From sequence record KM606994: a stretch of 64,000 nucleotides of DNA. One strand, written 5' to 3'. This stretch comes from Escherichia phage RB3. Below, one piece after another: positions 3,424 to 44,083 of the stretch. The translations under genes were made by a program, and so were the position numbers. The notes beneath the pieces are model-generated. The model did not search any database. It saw only the letters and a list, made by a program, of their open reading frames with translations, and was not told where the DNA came from. Numbering within the stretch: position 1 is the stretch's first letter; every line of letters starts with the position of its first letter.

Positions 3424-3499
3424 TGGTCGAGGCAGTAGGGATCGAACCTACGACCCAGGACTTAGAAGGTCCTTGCTCTTCCTTCTGAGCTATGCCTCG
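3424..3499 (-). tRNA. tRNA-Arg (anticodon UCU)
   Basis: Manual fold: acceptor CGAGGCA/TGCCTCG, anticodon loop CTTCTAA, T-loop GGTTCGATCC, encoded CCA. Confidence 0.85.
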
Positions 3500-3503
3500 T
3501 ATT

Positions 3504-3578
3504 TGGCGGACGTGATAGGATTCGAACCTATAACCAATCGCTTAACAGGCGATCGCTCTGCCATTGAGCTACACATCC
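3504..3578 (-). tRNA. tRNA-Asn (anticodon GUU)
   Basis: Manual fold: acceptor GGATGTG/CACGTCC, D-arm GCTC-AATGGCA-GAGC, anticodon loop CTGTTAA, T-arm ATAGG-TTCGAAT-CCTAT, CCA. Confidence 0.85.
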
Positions 3579-3582
3579 AAAT

Positions 3583-3669
3583 TGGTGGGGAGTGATGGAG
3601 TCGAACCACCCGAGTCGCAATGACAATGGATTTACAGTCCACACCGCTACCTCTACGGGATAACTCCCC
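3583..3669 (-). tRNA. tRNA-Tyr (anticodon GUA), class II with long variable arm
   Basis: Manual fold: acceptor GGGGAGT/ACTCCCC, anticodon loop CTGTAAA, long variable arm, T-loop TTCGACT, CCA; 87 nt. Confidence 0.8.
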
Positions 3670-3678
3670 TAATTAATT

Positions 3679-3753
3679 TGGTGGCCCTGGGTGGAATTGA
3701 ACCACCATCTGGCGATTATGAGTCGCTTGCTTGAACCTTCCAGCTACAGGGCC
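3679..3753 (-). tRNA. tRNA with CAU anticodon (Ile if lysidine-modified, otherwise Met)
   Basis: Manual fold: acceptor GGCCCTG/CAGGGCC, anticodon loop CTCATAA, T-loop GGTTCAATTCC, CCA; sits where T4 has tRNA-Ile. Confidence 0.85.
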
Positions 3754-3754
3754 T

Positions 3755-3830
3755 TGGCGCTGATTGACGGAATCGAACCGCCGACATCCTCATTACAAGT
3801 GAGGTGCTCTACCTACTGAGCTAAATCAGC
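3755..3830 (-). tRNA. tRNA-Thr (anticodon UGU)
   Basis: Acceptor GCTGATT/AATCAGC, D-loop TAGCTCAGTAGGTAGAGC, anticodon loop CTTGTAA, T-loop GGTTCGATTCC, CCA. Confidence 0.9.
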
Positions 3831-3835
3831 AAAAC

Positions 3836-3925
3836 TGGCGGAGGCGATAGGATTTGAACCTATGAGTCGCCGGAGCGACTGCCGGTTTTCAAGACCGGTG
3901 CATTAAACCACTCTGCCACGCCTCC
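3836..3925 (-). tRNA. tRNA-Ser (anticodon UGA), class II
   Basis: Acceptor GGAGGCG/CGCCTCC, anticodon loop CTTGAAA, long variable arm, T-loop GGTTCAAATCC, CCA; 90 nt. Confidence 0.9.
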
Positions 3926-3927
3926 AG

Positions 3928-4001
3928 TCTCCATACAAGGATTTGAACCTTGGACCTCCTGATCCCAAATCAGGCGCTCTACCAAACTGAGCTACACGGA
4001 G
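3928..4001 (-). tRNA. tRNA-Pro (anticodon UGG)
   Basis: Acceptor CTCCGTG/TATGGAG with G-U pairs, D-loop TAGCTCAGTTTGGTAGAGC, anticodon loop TTTGGGA, T-loop GGTTCAAATCC; CCA not encoded. Confidence 0.9.
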
Positions 4002-4011
4002 TAAATTAAAT

Positions 4012-4085
<74 letters not shown>

Positions 4086-4090
4086 AAATT

Positions 4091-4177
4091 TGGTGCGAGA
4101 AGTGGGACTCGAACCCACAAGGAAATCATTCCGCAGCATTTTAAGTGCTGTGCCTTTACCAATTTGACCATTCTCGC
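4091..4177 (-). tRNA. tRNA-Leu (anticodon UAA), class II
   Basis: Acceptor GCGAGAA/TTCTCGC, anticodon loop CTTAAAA, long variable arm, T-loop GGTTCGAGTCC, CCA; 87 nt. Confidence 0.9.
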
Positions 4178-4178
4178 G

Positions 4179-4251
4179 CTGGGAATAAAGGACTCGAACC
4201 TTTGCATCCTGGAATCAAAATCCAGTGCCTTACCAACTTGGCTAATTCCCA
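4179..4251 (-). tRNA. tRNA-Gln (anticodon UUG)
   Basis: Acceptor TGGGAAT/ATTCCCA, anticodon loop TTTTGAT, T-loop GGTTCGAGTCC; CCA not encoded; 1 nt from tRNA-Leu. Confidence 0.9.
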
Positions 4252-26820: not shown

Positions 26821-29962
<3,142 letters not shown>

Positions 29963-29989: not shown

Positions 29990-31969
29990 ATGACTTTATT
30001 ATCTCCGGGCATTGAGCTCAAAGAAACTACGGTTCAAAGCACCGTGGTTAATAACTCTACTGGTACAGCAGCTTTGGCCGGTAAATTCCAGTGGGGTCCT
30101 GCTTTTCAGATTAAACAGGTTACAAATGAAGTAGATTTAGTTAATACTTTTGGTCAACCAACCGCTGAAACTGCTGACTATTTTATGTCTGCGATGAATT
30201 TCTTGCAGTACGGAAATGACTTACGAGTAGTTCGTGCTGTTGATAGAGATACCGCTAAAAACTCATCGCCAATTGCTGGTAATATTGAATACACAATTTC
30301 TACCCCAGGTAGTAACTATGCGGTTGGAGATAAAATCACGGTCAAATATGTTTCAGATGATATTGAAACTGAAGGTAAAATTACCGAAGTAGACGCAGAT
30401 GGAAAAATTAAGAAAATTAATATTCCTACTGCAAAAATTATCGCTAAAGCGAAAGAAGTCGGTGAATATCCAGCACTAGGTTCTAACTGGACTGCGGAAA
30501 TTTCTTCGTCTTCCTCTGGTTTAGCTGCAGTAATAACTCTTGGAAAAATTATTACTGATTCTGGTATTTTATTAGCTGAAATTGAAAATGCTGAAGCTGC
30601 TATGACAGCGGTTGACTTTCAAGCAAGTCTCGAAAAATACGGAATTCCAGGAGTAGTAGCTCTTTATCCAGGCGAATTAGGCGATAAAATTGAAATTGAA
30701 ATCGTATCTAAAGCTGACTATGCAAAAGGAGCTTCTGCATTACTCCCAATTTATCCGGGCGGTGGTACTCGTGCATCTACTGCTAAAGCAGTGTTTGGAT
30801 ATGGACCACAAACTGATTCACAGTACGCTATTATAGTTCGTCGTAATGATGCTATTGTTCAAAGCGTTGTTCTTTCAACTAAGCGTGGTGAAAAAGATAT
30901 TTACGATAGTAACATCTATATCGATGACTTTTTCGCAAAAGGTGGTTCAGAATATATTTTTGCAACTGCACAAAACTGGCCAGAAGGATTCTCTGGAATT
31001 TTAACTCTGTCTGGTGGATTATCATCAAATGCTGAAGTAACAGCAGGAGATTTGATGGAAGCTTGGGACTTCTTTGCTGACCGTGAATCTGTTGATGTTC
31101 AACTGTTTATTGCAGGTTCTTGTGCTGGTGAATCTTTAGAAACAGCATCTACTGTCCAAAAACACGTCGTTTCAATCGGGGATGCTCGTCAAGATTGCTT
31201 AGTATTGTGCTCTCCTCCGCGTGAAACTGTAGTTGGAATTCCTGTAACTCGCGCTGTTGACAACTTAGTCAACTGGAGAACCGCAACAGGTTCATACACT
31301 GATAATAACTTTAATATCAGTTCAACCTATGCAGCAATTGATGGTAACTATAAGTATCAGTATGACAAATATAATGATGTGAATCGTTGGGTTCCATTAG
31401 CAGCTGATATTGCTGGTTTATGCGCAAGAACTGATAACGTATCTCAGACTTGGATGTCTCCAGCTGGTTATAATCGTGGTCAGATTCTTAACGTTATTAA
31501 ACTGGCTATTGAAACTCGCCAGGCTCAGCGCGACCGTTTATACCAAGAAGCTATCAACCCAGTAACTGGTACAGGTGGTGATGGTTACGTATTGTATGGT
31601 GATAAAACAGCTACTTCTGTTCCTTCTCCATTTGATCGTATTAACGTTCGTCGTCTGTTTAATATGTTGAAAACGAATATCGGACGTAGTTCAAAATATC
31701 GTTTGTTCGAATTAAACAACGCGTTTACTCGTTCATCATTCCGCACAGAAACTGCCCAATACTTACAGGGAATTAAAGCTCTCGGTGGAATTTATGAATA
31801 TCGTGTAGTTTGCGATACAACAAATAACACTCCGTCAGTAATTGATAGAAATGAGTTTGTTGCAACATTCTACATCCAACCGGCGCGCAGTATAAATTAT
31901 ATTACTTTGAATTTCGTCGCAACTGCTACTGGTGCAGATTTCGATGAGTTAACTGGTCTTGCAGGTTAA
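29990..31969 (+). CDS. 18: gp18 tail sheath protein
   Basis: 659 aa, T4 length; GAGGA Shine-Dalgarno. Confidence 0.95.
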   Translation: MTLLSPGIELKETTVQSTVVNNSTGTAALAGKFQWGPAFQIKQVTNEVDLVNTFGQPTAETADYFMSAMNFLQYGNDLRVVRAVDRDTAKNSSPIAGNIEYTISTPGSNYAVGDKITVKYVSDDIETEGKITEVDADGKIKKINIPTAKIIAKAKEVGEYPALGSNWTAEISSSSSGLAAVITLGKIITDSGILLAEIENAEAAMTAVDFQASLEKYGIPGVVALYPGELGDKIEIEIVSKADYAKGASALLPIYPGGGTRASTAKAVFGYGPQTDSQYAIIVRRNDAIVQSVVLSTKRGEKDIYDSNIYIDDFFAKGGSEYIFATAQNWPEGFSGILTLSGGLSSNAEVTAGDLMEAWDFFADRESVDVQLFIAGSCAGESLETASTVQKHVVSIGDARQDCLVLCSPPRETVVGIPVTRAVDNLVNWRTATGSYTDNNFNISSTYAAIDGNYKYQYDKYNDVNRWVPLAADIAGLCARTDNVSQTWMSPAGYNRGQILNVIKLAIETRQAQRDRLYQEAINPVTGTGGDGYVLYGDKTATSVPSPFDRINVRRLFNMLKTNIGRSSKYRLFELNNAFTRSSFRTETAQYLQGIKALGGIYEYRVVCDTTNNTPSVIDRNEFVATFYIQPARSINYITLNFVATATGADFDELTGLAG

Positions 31970-31975
31970 TTGATA

Positions 31976-31989
31976 TGGGGCTTCGGCCC
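31976..31989 (+). terminator. GC hairpin after gene 18 (GGGGC-TTCG-GCCCC)
   Basis: Perfect UUCG-capped hairpin 7 nt after gene 18 stop. Confidence 0.45.
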
Positions 31990-32007
31990 CTATTCTCGAG
32001 GAATCAA

Positions 32008-32625
32008 GTGATTATTTCTAAATTTATTAAAGTGAAAATTGTACCATCAAATTTTAAACATTATCAATCAAAGGGTTATAAATTAACACCTCTTGGAGCG
32101 GTTAAACATGGATTTAGGTATTATGAAATTGATGTTAAAGTTGAAGACATTAAAGGTAGTACCGCGTATGTAAAATGCCGTTGCGATAAATGTGGAATTG
32201 AATATAACCAACGCATTGGAAGAAACACTGATATTTGTCGTGATTGCCGTCATAAAGATAAAATGCGCAATAATTCATATGGTTCCGCGAATAAAGGAAA
32301 AACAGTAGAATGTATGCATGGCGTAAATCATCCAAGATGGAACCCAAATAAATCTGAAATGCGTGAATATATTTCATTGGTATATAAAGAAACTCGTAAG
32401 CATAAGAAAATTTGGTCAAAATGGCCAAATGCTGATAAAATAGGAGTGTGTGGTACAAAAGGCGCTTACCAACTTGATCATAAGGTATCTATCAAATACG
32501 GTTTTGATAATTTAATTCCTGCTAAAATAATTGGCGGTATTAATAATTTAGAAATAATCACTTGGGAATCTAACCGAGAAAAATCAAAAAGAAATAGTGT
32601 AGATCTTTGGGATTTACTAGAATGA
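32008..32625 (+). CDS. free-standing HNH homing endonuclease inserted between genes 18 and 19
   Basis: C-terminal HNH-like segment YQLDHKVSIKYGFDNL...NNLEIITWESNREKSKRN and Cys pairs CRCDKCG/CRDCRH; GTG start with GAGGAA Shine-Dalgarno preferred over track ATG at 31975, which lies inside the hairpin. Confidence 0.65.
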   Translation: MIISKFIKVKIVPSNFKHYQSKGYKLTPLGAVKHGFRYYEIDVKVEDIKGSTAYVKCRCDKCGIEYNQRIGRNTDICRDCRHKDKMRNNSYGSANKGKTVECMHGVNHPRWNPNKSEMREYISLVYKETRKHKKIWSKWPNADKIGVCGTKGAYQLDHKVSIKYGFDNLIPAKIIGGINNLEIITWESNREKSKRNSVDLWDLLE

Positions 32626-32633
32626 TTCTAAAG

Positions 32634-32651
32634 GCCTGTTTCGGCAGGCCA
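32634..32651 (+). terminator. hairpin after HNH ORF (GGCCTG-TTTCGG-CAGGCC)
   Basis: Inverted repeat directly after HNH stop. Confidence 0.4.
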
Positions 32652-32652
32652 T

Positions 32653-32660
32653 ATAAATAC
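32653..32660 (+). promoter_or_regulatory. late promoter motif TATAAATA, first of two upstream of gene 19
   Basis: Exact consensus immediately after HNH hairpin. Confidence 0.45.
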
Positions 32661-32710
32661 ACTATATCCTTAATTCTTTAATTCTATATGCCCTAGGTTA
32701 AACATAGGGA

Positions 32711-32718
32711 TATAAATA
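32711..32718 (+). promoter_or_regulatory. late promoter TATAAATA for gene 19
   Basis: Exact consensus 15 nt upstream of gene 19 ATG, preceded by hairpin CCCTAGG..CATAGGG. Confidence 0.55.
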
Positions 32719-32732
32719 CTACAGAGGCTAAT

Positions 32733-33224
32733 ATGTTTGTAGATGATGTAACACGAGCGTTTGAATCTGGTGATTTTGCTCGACCTAACTTATTCCAAGT
32801 AGAAATTTCTTATCTTGGACAAAATTTTACGTTTCAATGTAAAGCTACTGCTTTACCAGCTGGTATTGTAGAAAAAATTCCAGTCGGATTTATGAACCGT
32901 AAAATTAACGTAGCAGGCGATCGTACATTCGATGACTGGACTGTTACAGTAATGAACGATGAAGCTCATGATGCTCGCCAGAAGTTCGTTGATTGGCAAA
33001 GCATTGCTGCGGGGCAAGGAAACGAAATTACTGGTGGAAAACCTGCAGAGTATAAAAAGAGCGCTATCGTTCGTCAATATGCTCGTGACGCTAAAACAGT
33101 AACAAAAGAAATTGAAATTAAAGGTCTGTGGCCTACTAACGTGGGTGAACTTCAGTTAGATTGGGATTCAAACAATGAAATCCAAACATTTGAAGTAACT
33201 CTTGCTCTCGATTATTGGGAATAA
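32733..33224 (+). CDS. 19: gp19 tail tube protein
   Basis: 163 aa, T4 length. Confidence 0.95.
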   Translation: MFVDDVTRAFESGDFARPNLFQVEISYLGQNFTFQCKATALPAGIVEKIPVGFMNRKINVAGDRTFDDWTVTVMNDEAHDARQKFVDWQSIAAGQGNEITGGKPAEYKKSAIVRQYARDAKTVTKEIEIKGLWPTNVGELQLDWDSNNEIQTFEVTLALDYWE

Positions 33225-33229
33225 AATGA

Positions 33230-34881
<1,652 letters not shown>

Positions 34882-38614: not shown

Positions 38615-38629
38615 TCTTTGACGATTTAA

Positions 38630-38645
38630 GGGACCTTCGGGTCCC
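38630..38645 (+). terminator. terminator hairpin after gene 23 (GGGACC-TTCG-GGTCCC)
   Basis: Perfect hairpin followed by TTTAG. Confidence 0.5.
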
Positions 38646-38662
38646 TTTAGTTGTTTTTATGG

Positions 38663-38670
38663 TATAAATA
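38663..38670 (+). promoter_or_regulatory. late promoter TATAAATA for gene 24
   Basis: Exact consensus 28 nt upstream of gene 24 ATG. Confidence 0.6.
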
Positions 38671-38697
38671 AATCATATAAACCAAAAGGAAAGCGCA

Positions 38698-43465: not shown

Positions 43466-44083
43466 ATGTACCACTTTGTATATGAAACAACAAATCTAAT
43501 AAATGGTAAAAAGTATATAGGAAAACACTCTACTGATGACTTGAATGATGGTTACCTTGGTTCCGGTAAGGCAATTCAGCAGGCTATAAAGAAATATGGT
43601 GAAAACAATTTCTCTAGAACAATACTAAAAGAGTTTAAAACTTCCGAAGAAGCGTACATGTATGAAGAAGAAATTATAACTCCTGAACTAATAAAAAGCA
43701 AAAATTATTATAATATGAAACCTGGTGGAATTGGTGGAATTGTTATGACTACAGAGGTTATAGCAAAGATGAAAGAATCTTCCGCTAAAAGATTTGAAAA
43801 CTCACCAGGCACGGTATTAGGTAAAACTTGTTACACTAATGGAACTAAAAATATTTTTATTAAACCTGGAGAACTTGTTCCAGAAGGATTTGTAAAAGGG
43901 ATGGTTCATCCTAATAGAAAGTCCAGAAAAGGATGTAAAGTCAAACCGACTACCACAGGAACTTTTTGGGTCAATAATGGCGCAATAAATAAATTAATAC
44001 AACCAGACGGTATTATTCCCGACGGATTTATTAAAGGTCGTCTCATGAAAAGAGATTCTAAAGGCAAATTTAGTAAGGCATAA
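43466..44083 (+). CDS. segE: GIY-YIG homing endonuclease, SegE-like
   Basis: 205 aa; N-terminal VYETTNL...GKKYIGKH GIY-YIG motif, downstream conserved Arg, Glu and Asn (YYNMKPGG); location upstream of uvsW as recalled for T4 segE. Confidence 0.7.
   Translation: MYHFVYETTNLINGKKYIGKHSTDDLNDGYLGSGKAIQQAIKKYGENNFSRTILKEFKTSEEAYMYEEEIITPELIKSKNYYNMKPGGIGGIVMTTEVIAKMKESSAKRFENSPGTVLGKTCYTNGTKNIFIKPGELVPEGFVKGMVHPNRKSRKGCKVKPTTTGTFWVNNGAINKLIQPDGIIPDGFIKGRLMKRDSKGKFSKA

Follow-up and report, generated by a model that had tools for sequence, protein, structure and literature searches.

In Escherichia phage RB3 (accession no. KM606994), an open reading frame (ORF) of 205 aa was found between gene 18 (tail sheath) and gene 19 (tail tube), at positions 32008–32625 on the plus strand of the 64,000-nt stretch analyzed here, the whole of which is referred to as the window. 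Judged from its sequence, its structural models and its analogy to known T4 genes, this ORF is probably a free-standing gene of the HNH homing endonuclease type and the type I allele of the T6 ORF19.1 family; we estimate the probability of this reading to be about two in three. The gene is optional at one precise site among closely related phages, is found in two forms that differ in the presumed DNA-binding half, and is linked to a recoded patch in the adjacent sheath gene. It looks like a further selfish homing endonuclease gene of T-even phages.

Presence of the ORF at a Single Site between Genes 18 and 19

The boundaries of the insert were compared in an alignment with T2 and 15 further Tequatrovirus loci. 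A block of 655 nt (31970–32624, plus strand), absent from T4 and T2, was shown in carriers to replace 8 nt that these two phages contain just after the stop codon of gene 18 (29990–31969, plus strand; 659 aa). The empty-site phages T2, T4, RB27, phiD1, slur07, Lutter, and 236Ecol005PP read TAA-TACGGTGC-ATTCTAAAGGCC, with a gap of 116–118 nt between genes 18 and 19. Carriers read TAA, the 655 nt and then ATTCTAAAGGCC, and the boundaries were identical in all sampled carriers of both allele types. Queries spanning the junction identified about 134 phage records with an ORF at this site and 533 with an empty junction. Carriers occurred in several Tequatrovirus species, and presence was patchy within single species-level groups. 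The relatives compared are closely related and collinear, and the genes on both sides of the insert, including gene 19 (32733–33224, plus strand; 163 aa), were undisrupted.

A first-pass annotation of this DNA had proposed that a 205-aa ORF of HNH and zinc-finger type was inserted between genes 18 and 19, and had suggested comparing this junction across T-even genomes. The comparison showed a clean presence or absence of 655 nt against 8 nt, and the ORF was not shared by all relatives, with empty-site alleles in T4, T2, RB27, phiD1, Lutter, and others. In the alignment, the insert boundaries showed neither a direct repeat nor a duplicated stretch. The 8–9 nt of the empty site (TACGGTGCA) were also compared with the insert ends as a candidate boundary footprint, which was unconvincing (about 10 of 23 positions matched by eye). 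Positions 31500–33300 of the window were 100% identical to phages RB5, RB6, RB7, RB9, and RB10 (species Tequatrovirus RB3); the data would fit either a gain of the gene by RB5 or its loss by T4 and T2.

The reading frame extends over 31975–32625 and would encode 216 aa from an ATG or 205 aa from the GTG at 32008. The GTG is the credible start, because a GAGGAA ribosome-binding site (31998–32003, plus strand) is located 4 nt before it, because the upstream ATG, which sits within a hairpin, is not conserved (AAG in W143, GTG in SF2-1), and because a GTG start is noted in two independent GenBank records, T6 and Sf22. The ORF was intact in all of the sampled carriers (10/10) and showed ratios of non-synonymous to synonymous polymorphism (pN/pS) of 0.06–0.25, which on sequence grounds indicates a real, functional gene under purifying selection. 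Its G+C content of 31.6%, vs. 36–39% for the neighboring genes, agrees with an accessory or mobile nature of the gene without being diagnostic of it. The ORF lies between genes, has a stop codon and a ribosome-binding site of its own and is not contained in an intron or intein. An Rfam scan of 31800–32900 gave no match, i.e., no intron or known RNA element, and the ORF is therefore free-standing.

Two Forms of the Gene in at Least Three Lineages

Two forms of the ORF19.1 gene were found in at least three lineages, which is a new finding of this study. The T6-type ORF (type II) matches the ORF of the window (type I) in its leader, its initial codons and its final 73 codons (about 90% identity), while identity between the two was about 27% over residues 12–130, the variable N-terminal half and putative DNA-binding module (32041–32397, plus strand). 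Overall identity of the two ORFs was 49% by BLAST and 57% by global alignment. Between the window and phage VEc20, gp19 was 100% identical while the ORF was 57% identical. Four more protein pairs showed the same pattern, with C-terminal cores 92–99% identical and N-terminal halves 27–35% identical; comparisons of the same type between lineages gave 49–65% for the N-terminal half and 70–81% for the C-terminal core.

The mosaic was confirmed at DNA level in two further lineages, represented by the pairs L029/L030 and L031/L032, whose gp19 showed about 71 and 82% identity, respectively, to that of the window. The compared flanks were 88–97% identical within these pairs, and the leader and the 3′ 220–330 nt of the ORF were mostly 96–100% identical, while the central 360–400 nt were 36–50% identical, i.e., unalignable. 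These sequences are most simply read as reflecting two old forms of the presumed DNA-binding half that would predate the split of the lineages, the shared parts having been homogenized by recombination within each lineage.

A Recoded Patch at the 3′ End of Gene 18

Eleven synonymous differences within 34 nt of gene 18, in the codons for PARSINYITLNFV (31885–31918, plus strand), separate T4-type empty sites from type I carriers. This patch lies 52–85 nt upstream of the insert, and type II carriers showed a variant of their own that includes a Thr-to-Gln change. An analysis of flanking polymorphisms in 16 Tequatrovirus loci showed that those located more than about 100 nt ahead of the stop codon of gene 18 were shuffled irrespective of ORF state, while the last 100 nt of gene 18 tracked it (mean mutual information 0.68 vs. 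0.07–0.24 elsewhere); the flank downstream of the insert was invariant. The ORF was found in 4 of about 252 records with a T4-type patch (about 1.6%), namely sb1, sb2, sb3, and Ec_YwIITB1. Within the L031/L032 pair, 6 of the 11 differences in the last 300 nt of gene 18 were located at the homologous Ala-Arg-Ser codons, including AGA/CGC and TCG/AGT switches.

The patch may be a recognition site or a co-conversion tract. Two models fit the data: the carrier-type patch could shield carriers from their own enzyme, or the T4-type patch could be a recoded, resistant empty site. The second model handles the four carriers with a T4-type patch, in which the ORF is intact, more easily.

Distribution of the Gene Family and Conservation of the Locus

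All homologues with an inspected neighborhood, except for one relative, were found directly downstream of the sheath gene. They were also located upstream of the tube gene, except in Sinorhizobium phage phiM12; one metagenomic contig (L026) contained one small extra ORF in between. Homologues in this post-sheath position were detected in Klebsiella Roth17, Salmonella STP4-a, Shewanella Thanatos-2, Pectobacterium POP12, Aeromonas AS-zj, Acinetobacter AbTZA1, and Sinorhizobium phiM12, the last of which lies outside the family Straboviridae, and two metagenomic T4-like contigs with much longer sheath proteins (779–995 aa) showed the same gene order. Identities of gp18, ORF and gp19 to those of the window were 72, 64, and 68% for Roth17 and 77, 63, and 76% for STP4-a; for phiM12, gp18 and the ORF showed 39 and 37% identity. 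These sequences indicate that the gene has a long history at the post-sheath slot.

The exception was a 151-aa relative of the C-terminal HNH-like domain, which a metagenomic T4-like contig of 117 kb (L027:4001–4456) carries immediately behind a major capsid gene of the gp23 type, i.e., in a different slot but again just 3′ of a highly conserved structural gene. The family is modular in the manner typical of homing endonucleases, which counts in favor of this reading. It was matched by 6147 cluster representatives at E ≤ 1e-3, 1344 of which passed E ≤ 1e-10. Longer relatives of 316–451 aa (P0226, P0232, P0249, P0272, and P0273) contained one to three DUF7487 modules (up to E 2.6e-50) before the C-terminal domain; Pfam assigns no function to DUF7487 or to the C-terminal domain of ORF19.1. 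The ORF of the window was assigned to the ORF19.1 family (PHROG 5104) from its full-length match to T6 ORF19.1 and the conserved position between sheath and tube genes.

Several observations speak against a homing endonuclease gene. Across genera, ORF identity roughly tracked gp18 and gp19 identity, with the same locus being occupied out to phiM12, and vertical residence with losses fits this as well as homing among relatives does. The link between patch and ORF has exceptions: a carrier-type patch occurs in T2 and in a minimum of 59 further empty-site records, and a T4-type patch in the four carriers named above. The link could also be ordinary tight linkage. In addition, the database records are phylogenetically non-independent, so that the counts overstate the statistical strength. 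Literature searches for ORF19.1 or gp19.1 and for an endonuclease between genes 18 and 19 gave no paper on the gene, only Candida gene names and unrelated papers.

As the main alternative, the gene could be an old resident accessory nuclease that benefits the phage, e.g., by attacking competitor or host DNA, and that has been inherited vertically and lost repeatedly (as in T4 and T2) without copying itself. This would agree with the constant post-sheath locus in every T4-like genus inspected and in the metagenomic relatives, with the rough parallel between ORF and gp18/gp19 identity, with the strong purifying selection and with the parallel divergence of types I and II between lineages. It agrees poorly, however, with patchy presence within species-level groups at the same exact boundaries each time, with two very different alleles in near-identical backgrounds, with a flanking association sharply confined to about 100 bp, and with the relative that follows the major capsid gene instead; besides, T4 and T2 manage without the gene. 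We consider exclusive residence of this kind to be unlikely, while benefit to the phage and selfish spread are not mutually exclusive.

Zinc Finger and HNH-Type Domain of the Predicted Protein

The variable N-terminal half of the protein contains a Cys4 treble-clef-like zinc finger (C59, C62, C77, and C80; 32182–32247, plus strand). Three of these cysteines (C59, C62, and C77) were invariant in 35 homologues, and C80 completes the Cys4 site in the window protein; weak matches to DUF4379, a treble-clef zinc finger, were found in 10/35 and 24/105 family members. The zinc finger is followed by a NUMOD3-like motif, GxNHPRWNPNK. A predicted beta-beta-alpha-metal (HNH) core is located at 32455–32583 (plus strand), with D157–H158 at 32476–32481, N180 at 32545–32547 and N189 at 32572–32574. 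These four residues and K192 were invariant in the 35 homologues, and among 105 more diverse homologues the Asp, the His and N180 were invariant and the second Asn was at least 90% conserved. In AlphaFold models, H158 ends strand 1, N180 lies just before strand 2 and N189 is located in the next helix, which corresponds to the residue pattern of HNH domains (a catalytic His, usually preceded by Asp, closing strand 1, a structural Asn ahead of strand 2 and a metal-binding Asn or His in the helix); the modeled beta-hairpin and alpha-helix likewise correspond to the core fold of the HNH superfamily. The predicted local distance difference test (pLDDT) score was 84.9 for the full length and 91.5 for residues 104–205, and the arrangement of the two halves is uncertain, with a predicted template modeling (pTM) score of 0.47 for the full-length model.

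In profile searches, PHROG 5104, listed as of “unknown function,” matched residues 1–204 (E 1.3e-91). Pfam, NCBIfam and PADLOC scans of the window protein gave no nuclease match, and no curated HNH profile was significant. Single scans of the 105 members gave matches below threshold to HNH_4 in nine (best E 0.0037), to HNH in two and to NUMOD3 in three, and three short family members are named McrA by JGI. Sequence searches of PDB (one single-sequence and two profile searches) gave weak zinc-finger matches or nothing, and in a Foldseek search of PDB with the full-length model no match reached E ≤ 0.001. Alignment of the family profile by hhalign with the GVE2 ORF43 “HNH endonuclease” and ORF61 gave a probability of about 1% or less, single-sequence templates being too weak. 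The label of an HNH and zinc-finger protein given in the first-pass annotation was thus backed by motif and fold, the candidate catalytic residues being conserved on alignment, but not by a match to a Pfam HNH profile. Taken together, the models and alignments support a diverged HNH domain behind a zinc-finger DNA-binding half, at the level of fold and motif.

The protein might have lost nuclease activity and act as a DNA- or RNA-binding protein, e.g., a late tail-gene regulator, that merely keeps an HNH-like fold. This would be in line with the lack of a significant HNH profile and with the missing CxxC pairs that usually occur near the HNH core, where C148 alone is nearly invariant. Nevertheless, the general-base His, its partner Asp and both Asn were kept across 35–105 diverged homologues, as expected if catalysis is maintained, and many active HNH enzymes are without zinc-binding cysteines. 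Loss of activity is regarded as improbable.

Even less probable is a role in packaging, in which the protein would help the terminase as HNH proteins do in HK97-like cos phages. Small phage HNH proteins such as those of the Gme/GVE2 type work with terminases; the Gme and GVE2 proteins were the best structural neighbors of the window protein, and the gene sits in the 17-18-19-20 block, between terminase and portal genes. On the other hand, T4, T2 and about 80% of close relatives do without the ORF and still package DNA, and a large variable zinc-finger half in two unrelated forms suits site recognition and not a conserved protein partner. In addition, the T4 terminase gp17 has a nuclease of its own. 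A headful packaging nuclease of T4 is described in PMC3074133.

Hairpins and Late-Promoter Boxes around the Insert

The insert carries a hairpin, GGGGC-UUCG-GCCCC, directly after the stop codon of gene 18 (31977–31990, plus strand), which folds at −11.6 kcal/mol (z −2.9 vs. shuffled sequence). A second hairpin, GGCCUGU-UUCG-GCAGGCC (32633–32650, plus strand), is native to the 18–19 interval and was also found in empty-site phages; the 51-nt stretch that holds it folds at −14.1 kcal/mol (z −3.05). Neither was listed in a terminator scan of the window, because no T-run follows either of them. Two native late-promoter boxes for gene 19, TATAAATA, are located at 32652–32659 and 32711–32718 (plus strand); the window contains 21 exact copies of this box vs. 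10.4 expected. The two hairpins, the ORF and the two boxes had all been listed in the first-pass annotation and were recovered with offsets of at most 1 nt (box 1 at 32652 instead of 32653).

Its core idea, an inserted HNH homing endonuclease gene, survives, whereas its view that a doubled terminator-promoter unit represents the footprint of the insertion does not. The region 32625–32732, including the downstream hairpin and both TATAAATA boxes, was 100% identical in T4, T2 and many other empty-site phages, and in Lutter, a phage without the ORF, the two boxes carry promoter annotations. No TATAAATA box was found in the inserted block. The two hairpins differ in stem sequence and share the UUCG loop only, so that neither was copied from the other. 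A mechanism by which the insertion duplicated the unit is therefore refuted by the empty-site alignment and practically without probability, even though two hairpins and two boxes do occur in the interval.

A hairpin directly after the sheath stop codon was found in nearly every genus examined. It precedes the homologous ORF in Salmonella STP4-a, Sinorhizobium phiM12, Pectobacterium POP12, Aeromonas AS-zj, and Acinetobacter AbTZA1, and Shewanella Thanatos-2 carries an identical post-sheath hairpin, GGGGCTTCGGCCCC, upstream of its homologous ORF. The order of gene, hairpin and late promoter at the 18/19 junction is ordinary punctuation of T4 late genes. The block appears, from the alignment, to have slipped in upstream of gene 19's own signals, leaving these intact. 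The same arrangement was observed ahead of gene 20 (33228–33279), where a hairpin at 33228–33249 directly follows the stop codon of gene 19 and precedes a TATAAATA box at 33272; phage G4507 annotates a terminator at the position of this hairpin.

Upstream of gene 18, a TATAAATA late-promoter box is located at 29954–29961 (plus strand), and no further copy was found between 29961 and 32652. This box would be the only candidate promoter for transcripts reaching the ORF, via read-through. A longer stem, built around the first hairpin and masking the ribosome-binding site, was considered but rejected, as the fold was not better than shuffled sequence (z −0.81); one of its pairing bases differs in pSs-1, HY03 and T6-type carriers.

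Proposed Mode of Spread

The anatomy of the locus and its conservation, the polymorphism between carriers and empty sites, the purifying selection, the mosaic of two alleles and the linkage to the recoded patch are shown by the sequence comparisons. For the nuclease activity, the target site, the time of expression and the homing itself, we infer the following from sequence, models and analogy. The gene would move as a block of 655 nt with its own leader hairpin and ribosome-binding site but without a promoter of its own; late transcription would occur by read-through from the gene 18 promoter at 29954, and translation from the GTG start would be weak. The N-terminal half, with the Cys4 zinc finger and the NUMOD3-like motif, is presumed to read the DNA sequence, and the C-terminal HNH domain (D157–H158, N180, and N189) would provide the nicking or cutting activity. 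In analogy to SegF, SegG and MobE of T4, the DNA of a relative without the gene would be cut by the enzyme during a mixed infection, probably within the conserved 3′-terminal part of gene 18 (around 31885–31918). Recombinational repair would then copy the gene, together with up to about 100 bp of adjacent sheath-gene DNA, into the cut genome.

More tentatively, the junction may hold an ancient polymorphism of three states across genera (empty, type I, and type II). The catalytic half would be homogenized by recombination within each lineage, the unrelated zinc-finger halves would have different targets and 31885–31918 would be the contested target; each form would invade empty or rival alleles, and recoded empty sites of the T4 type would be resistant. 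Although we rate this extended scenario as doubtful, it would, if true, represent a natural, replicated case of specificity change in a homing endonuclease by module swap, and an arms race over the target site.

The T-even phages are the model system for free-standing homing endonucleases, and the ORF19.1 family is invisible to Pfam despite thousands of metagenomic relatives. An active enzyme would add a structural-gene target, the sheath gene, to the known targets and would help to explain mosaic boundaries at the 18/19 junction. Moreover, the two natural forms of the gene, which combine one catalytic core with different DNA-binding halves at a single slot, would offer a ready system for studying specificity change, and also target escape by synonymous recoding.

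Neighboring Genes, Database Records and Other Endonuclease-Like Genes

The RB5 record annotates gene 17 (large terminase), gene 18 (tail sheath), gene 19 (tail tube), and gene 20 (portal) around the locus. The 18–19 interval carries no annotation at all in this record, and the 205-aa ORF was missed in all of the RB5–RB10 records (KM606995–KM606999), while the RB3 record lists it as RB3_165. The ECp13 record (PP274704) annotates a 120-aa fragment only; a truncated, decaying copy was considered in this case and rejected as an annotation artifact, the GTG-started ORF being intact. A 32-kb record of “Staphylococcus phage SAJK-IND” (MG010123.1) showed 98% identity to the T-even 18-ORF-19 region and is probably a mislabeled or contaminated entry.

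An extra ORF of 190–198 aa was found between the tube and portal genes in L029 (1619–2191), L030 (1908–2480), and L031 (1615–2211). When scanned, the L031 and L029 ORFs matched NUMOD3 (E 1.8e-5 and 0.0063, respectively), and weak matches to the SegE GIY-YIG domain were obtained. Gene 19 is, in the lineages of L029 and L031, flanked on both sides by endonuclease-like genes. No ORF of this kind is present between genes 19 and 20 in the window.

Elsewhere in the window, ten tRNA genes (Arg, Asn, Tyr, Met/Ile-CAU, Thr, Ser, Pro, Gly, Leu, and Gln) form a tight cluster at 3424–4251 on the minus strand, the gaps being too small for an ORF. T4 has a cluster of eight tRNA genes that includes the segB endonuclease gene; compared with T4, the phage of the window appears to have two extra tRNAs and no segB. 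A 205-aa ORF at 43466–44083 (plus strand) matched the SegE-type GIY-YIG domain (PF19835, E 6.6e-9), and by this match it would be a second free-standing homing endonuclease-like gene in the window. Between ORFs of 521 and 427 aa, which match genes 23 and 24 in size and order, only 83 nt are present (38615–38697), i.e., there is no segD-sized gene, unlike in T4, where segD is placed by a table in PMC2988022.

Comparison with Known Systems

The ORF19.1 family was absent from the accessible published censuses of T-even homing endonucleases: a review of T4 mobile elements (PMC2988022) does not mention genes 18 or 19, and a 2010 table of T4-related genomes (PMC2993671) lists no “other HNH” gene for RB3. 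Hef of phage U5 resembles ORF19.1 in that it is free-standing and belongs to neither the seg nor the mob class of T-even homing endonucleases. Hef belongs, however, to the Vsr-like endonuclease family (PMC3239194), and a relation to the window protein was rejected. The nicking enzymes Gme HNH (PDB 4h9d) and phage GVE2 HNH (5h0o) showed 11–18% sequence identity to the window protein, with no match at sequence level; their chains of 92–97 residues contain nothing that matches its N-terminal half.

I-TevIII, from the same phage species group as the window, combines HNH with two zinc fingers for DNA binding (PMC2988022). It differs in being encoded within the nrdB group I intron of RB3 and in cutting as a dimer, whereas the ORF described here is without an intron and at another locus; no sequence match was found between the window protein and I-TevIII.

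MobA–MobE of T4 are similar to the gene described here in being free-standing, intergenic and optional between close relatives, in having an HNH-type motif and in being located beside conserved genes (PMC2988022). In Mob proteins, a distinct DNA-binding region lies C-terminal to a well-defined HNH domain (PMC2988022), the HNH-3 domain being described as N-terminal (PMC10448857). The window protein shows the reverse order, with the zinc finger N-terminal and HNH C-terminal, and no HNH_3 match, and thus does not have the Mob architecture. In all T-even records inspected, its tblastn matches fell into the 18–19 slot and none was at a known mob locus.

SegF and SegG provide the model of “intronless homing,” in which cleavage takes place in a neighboring conserved gene away from the insertion and is accompanied by co-conversion of flanking sequence (PMC2988022; titles cited in PMC2993671). 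The recoded patch 52–85 nt upstream of the insert fits this pattern of distant cleavage. SegF and SegG differ in being GIY-YIG nucleases whose activity and marker exclusion have been shown by experiment.

Closest to the gene described here is ORF19.1 of T6, although no assigned function was found for its type I or type II form. The two share the 18–19 slot, the leader hairpin, the GTG start, the insert boundaries and C-terminal 73 residues with about 90% identity, but T6 carries the type II zinc-finger half and the window the type I half.

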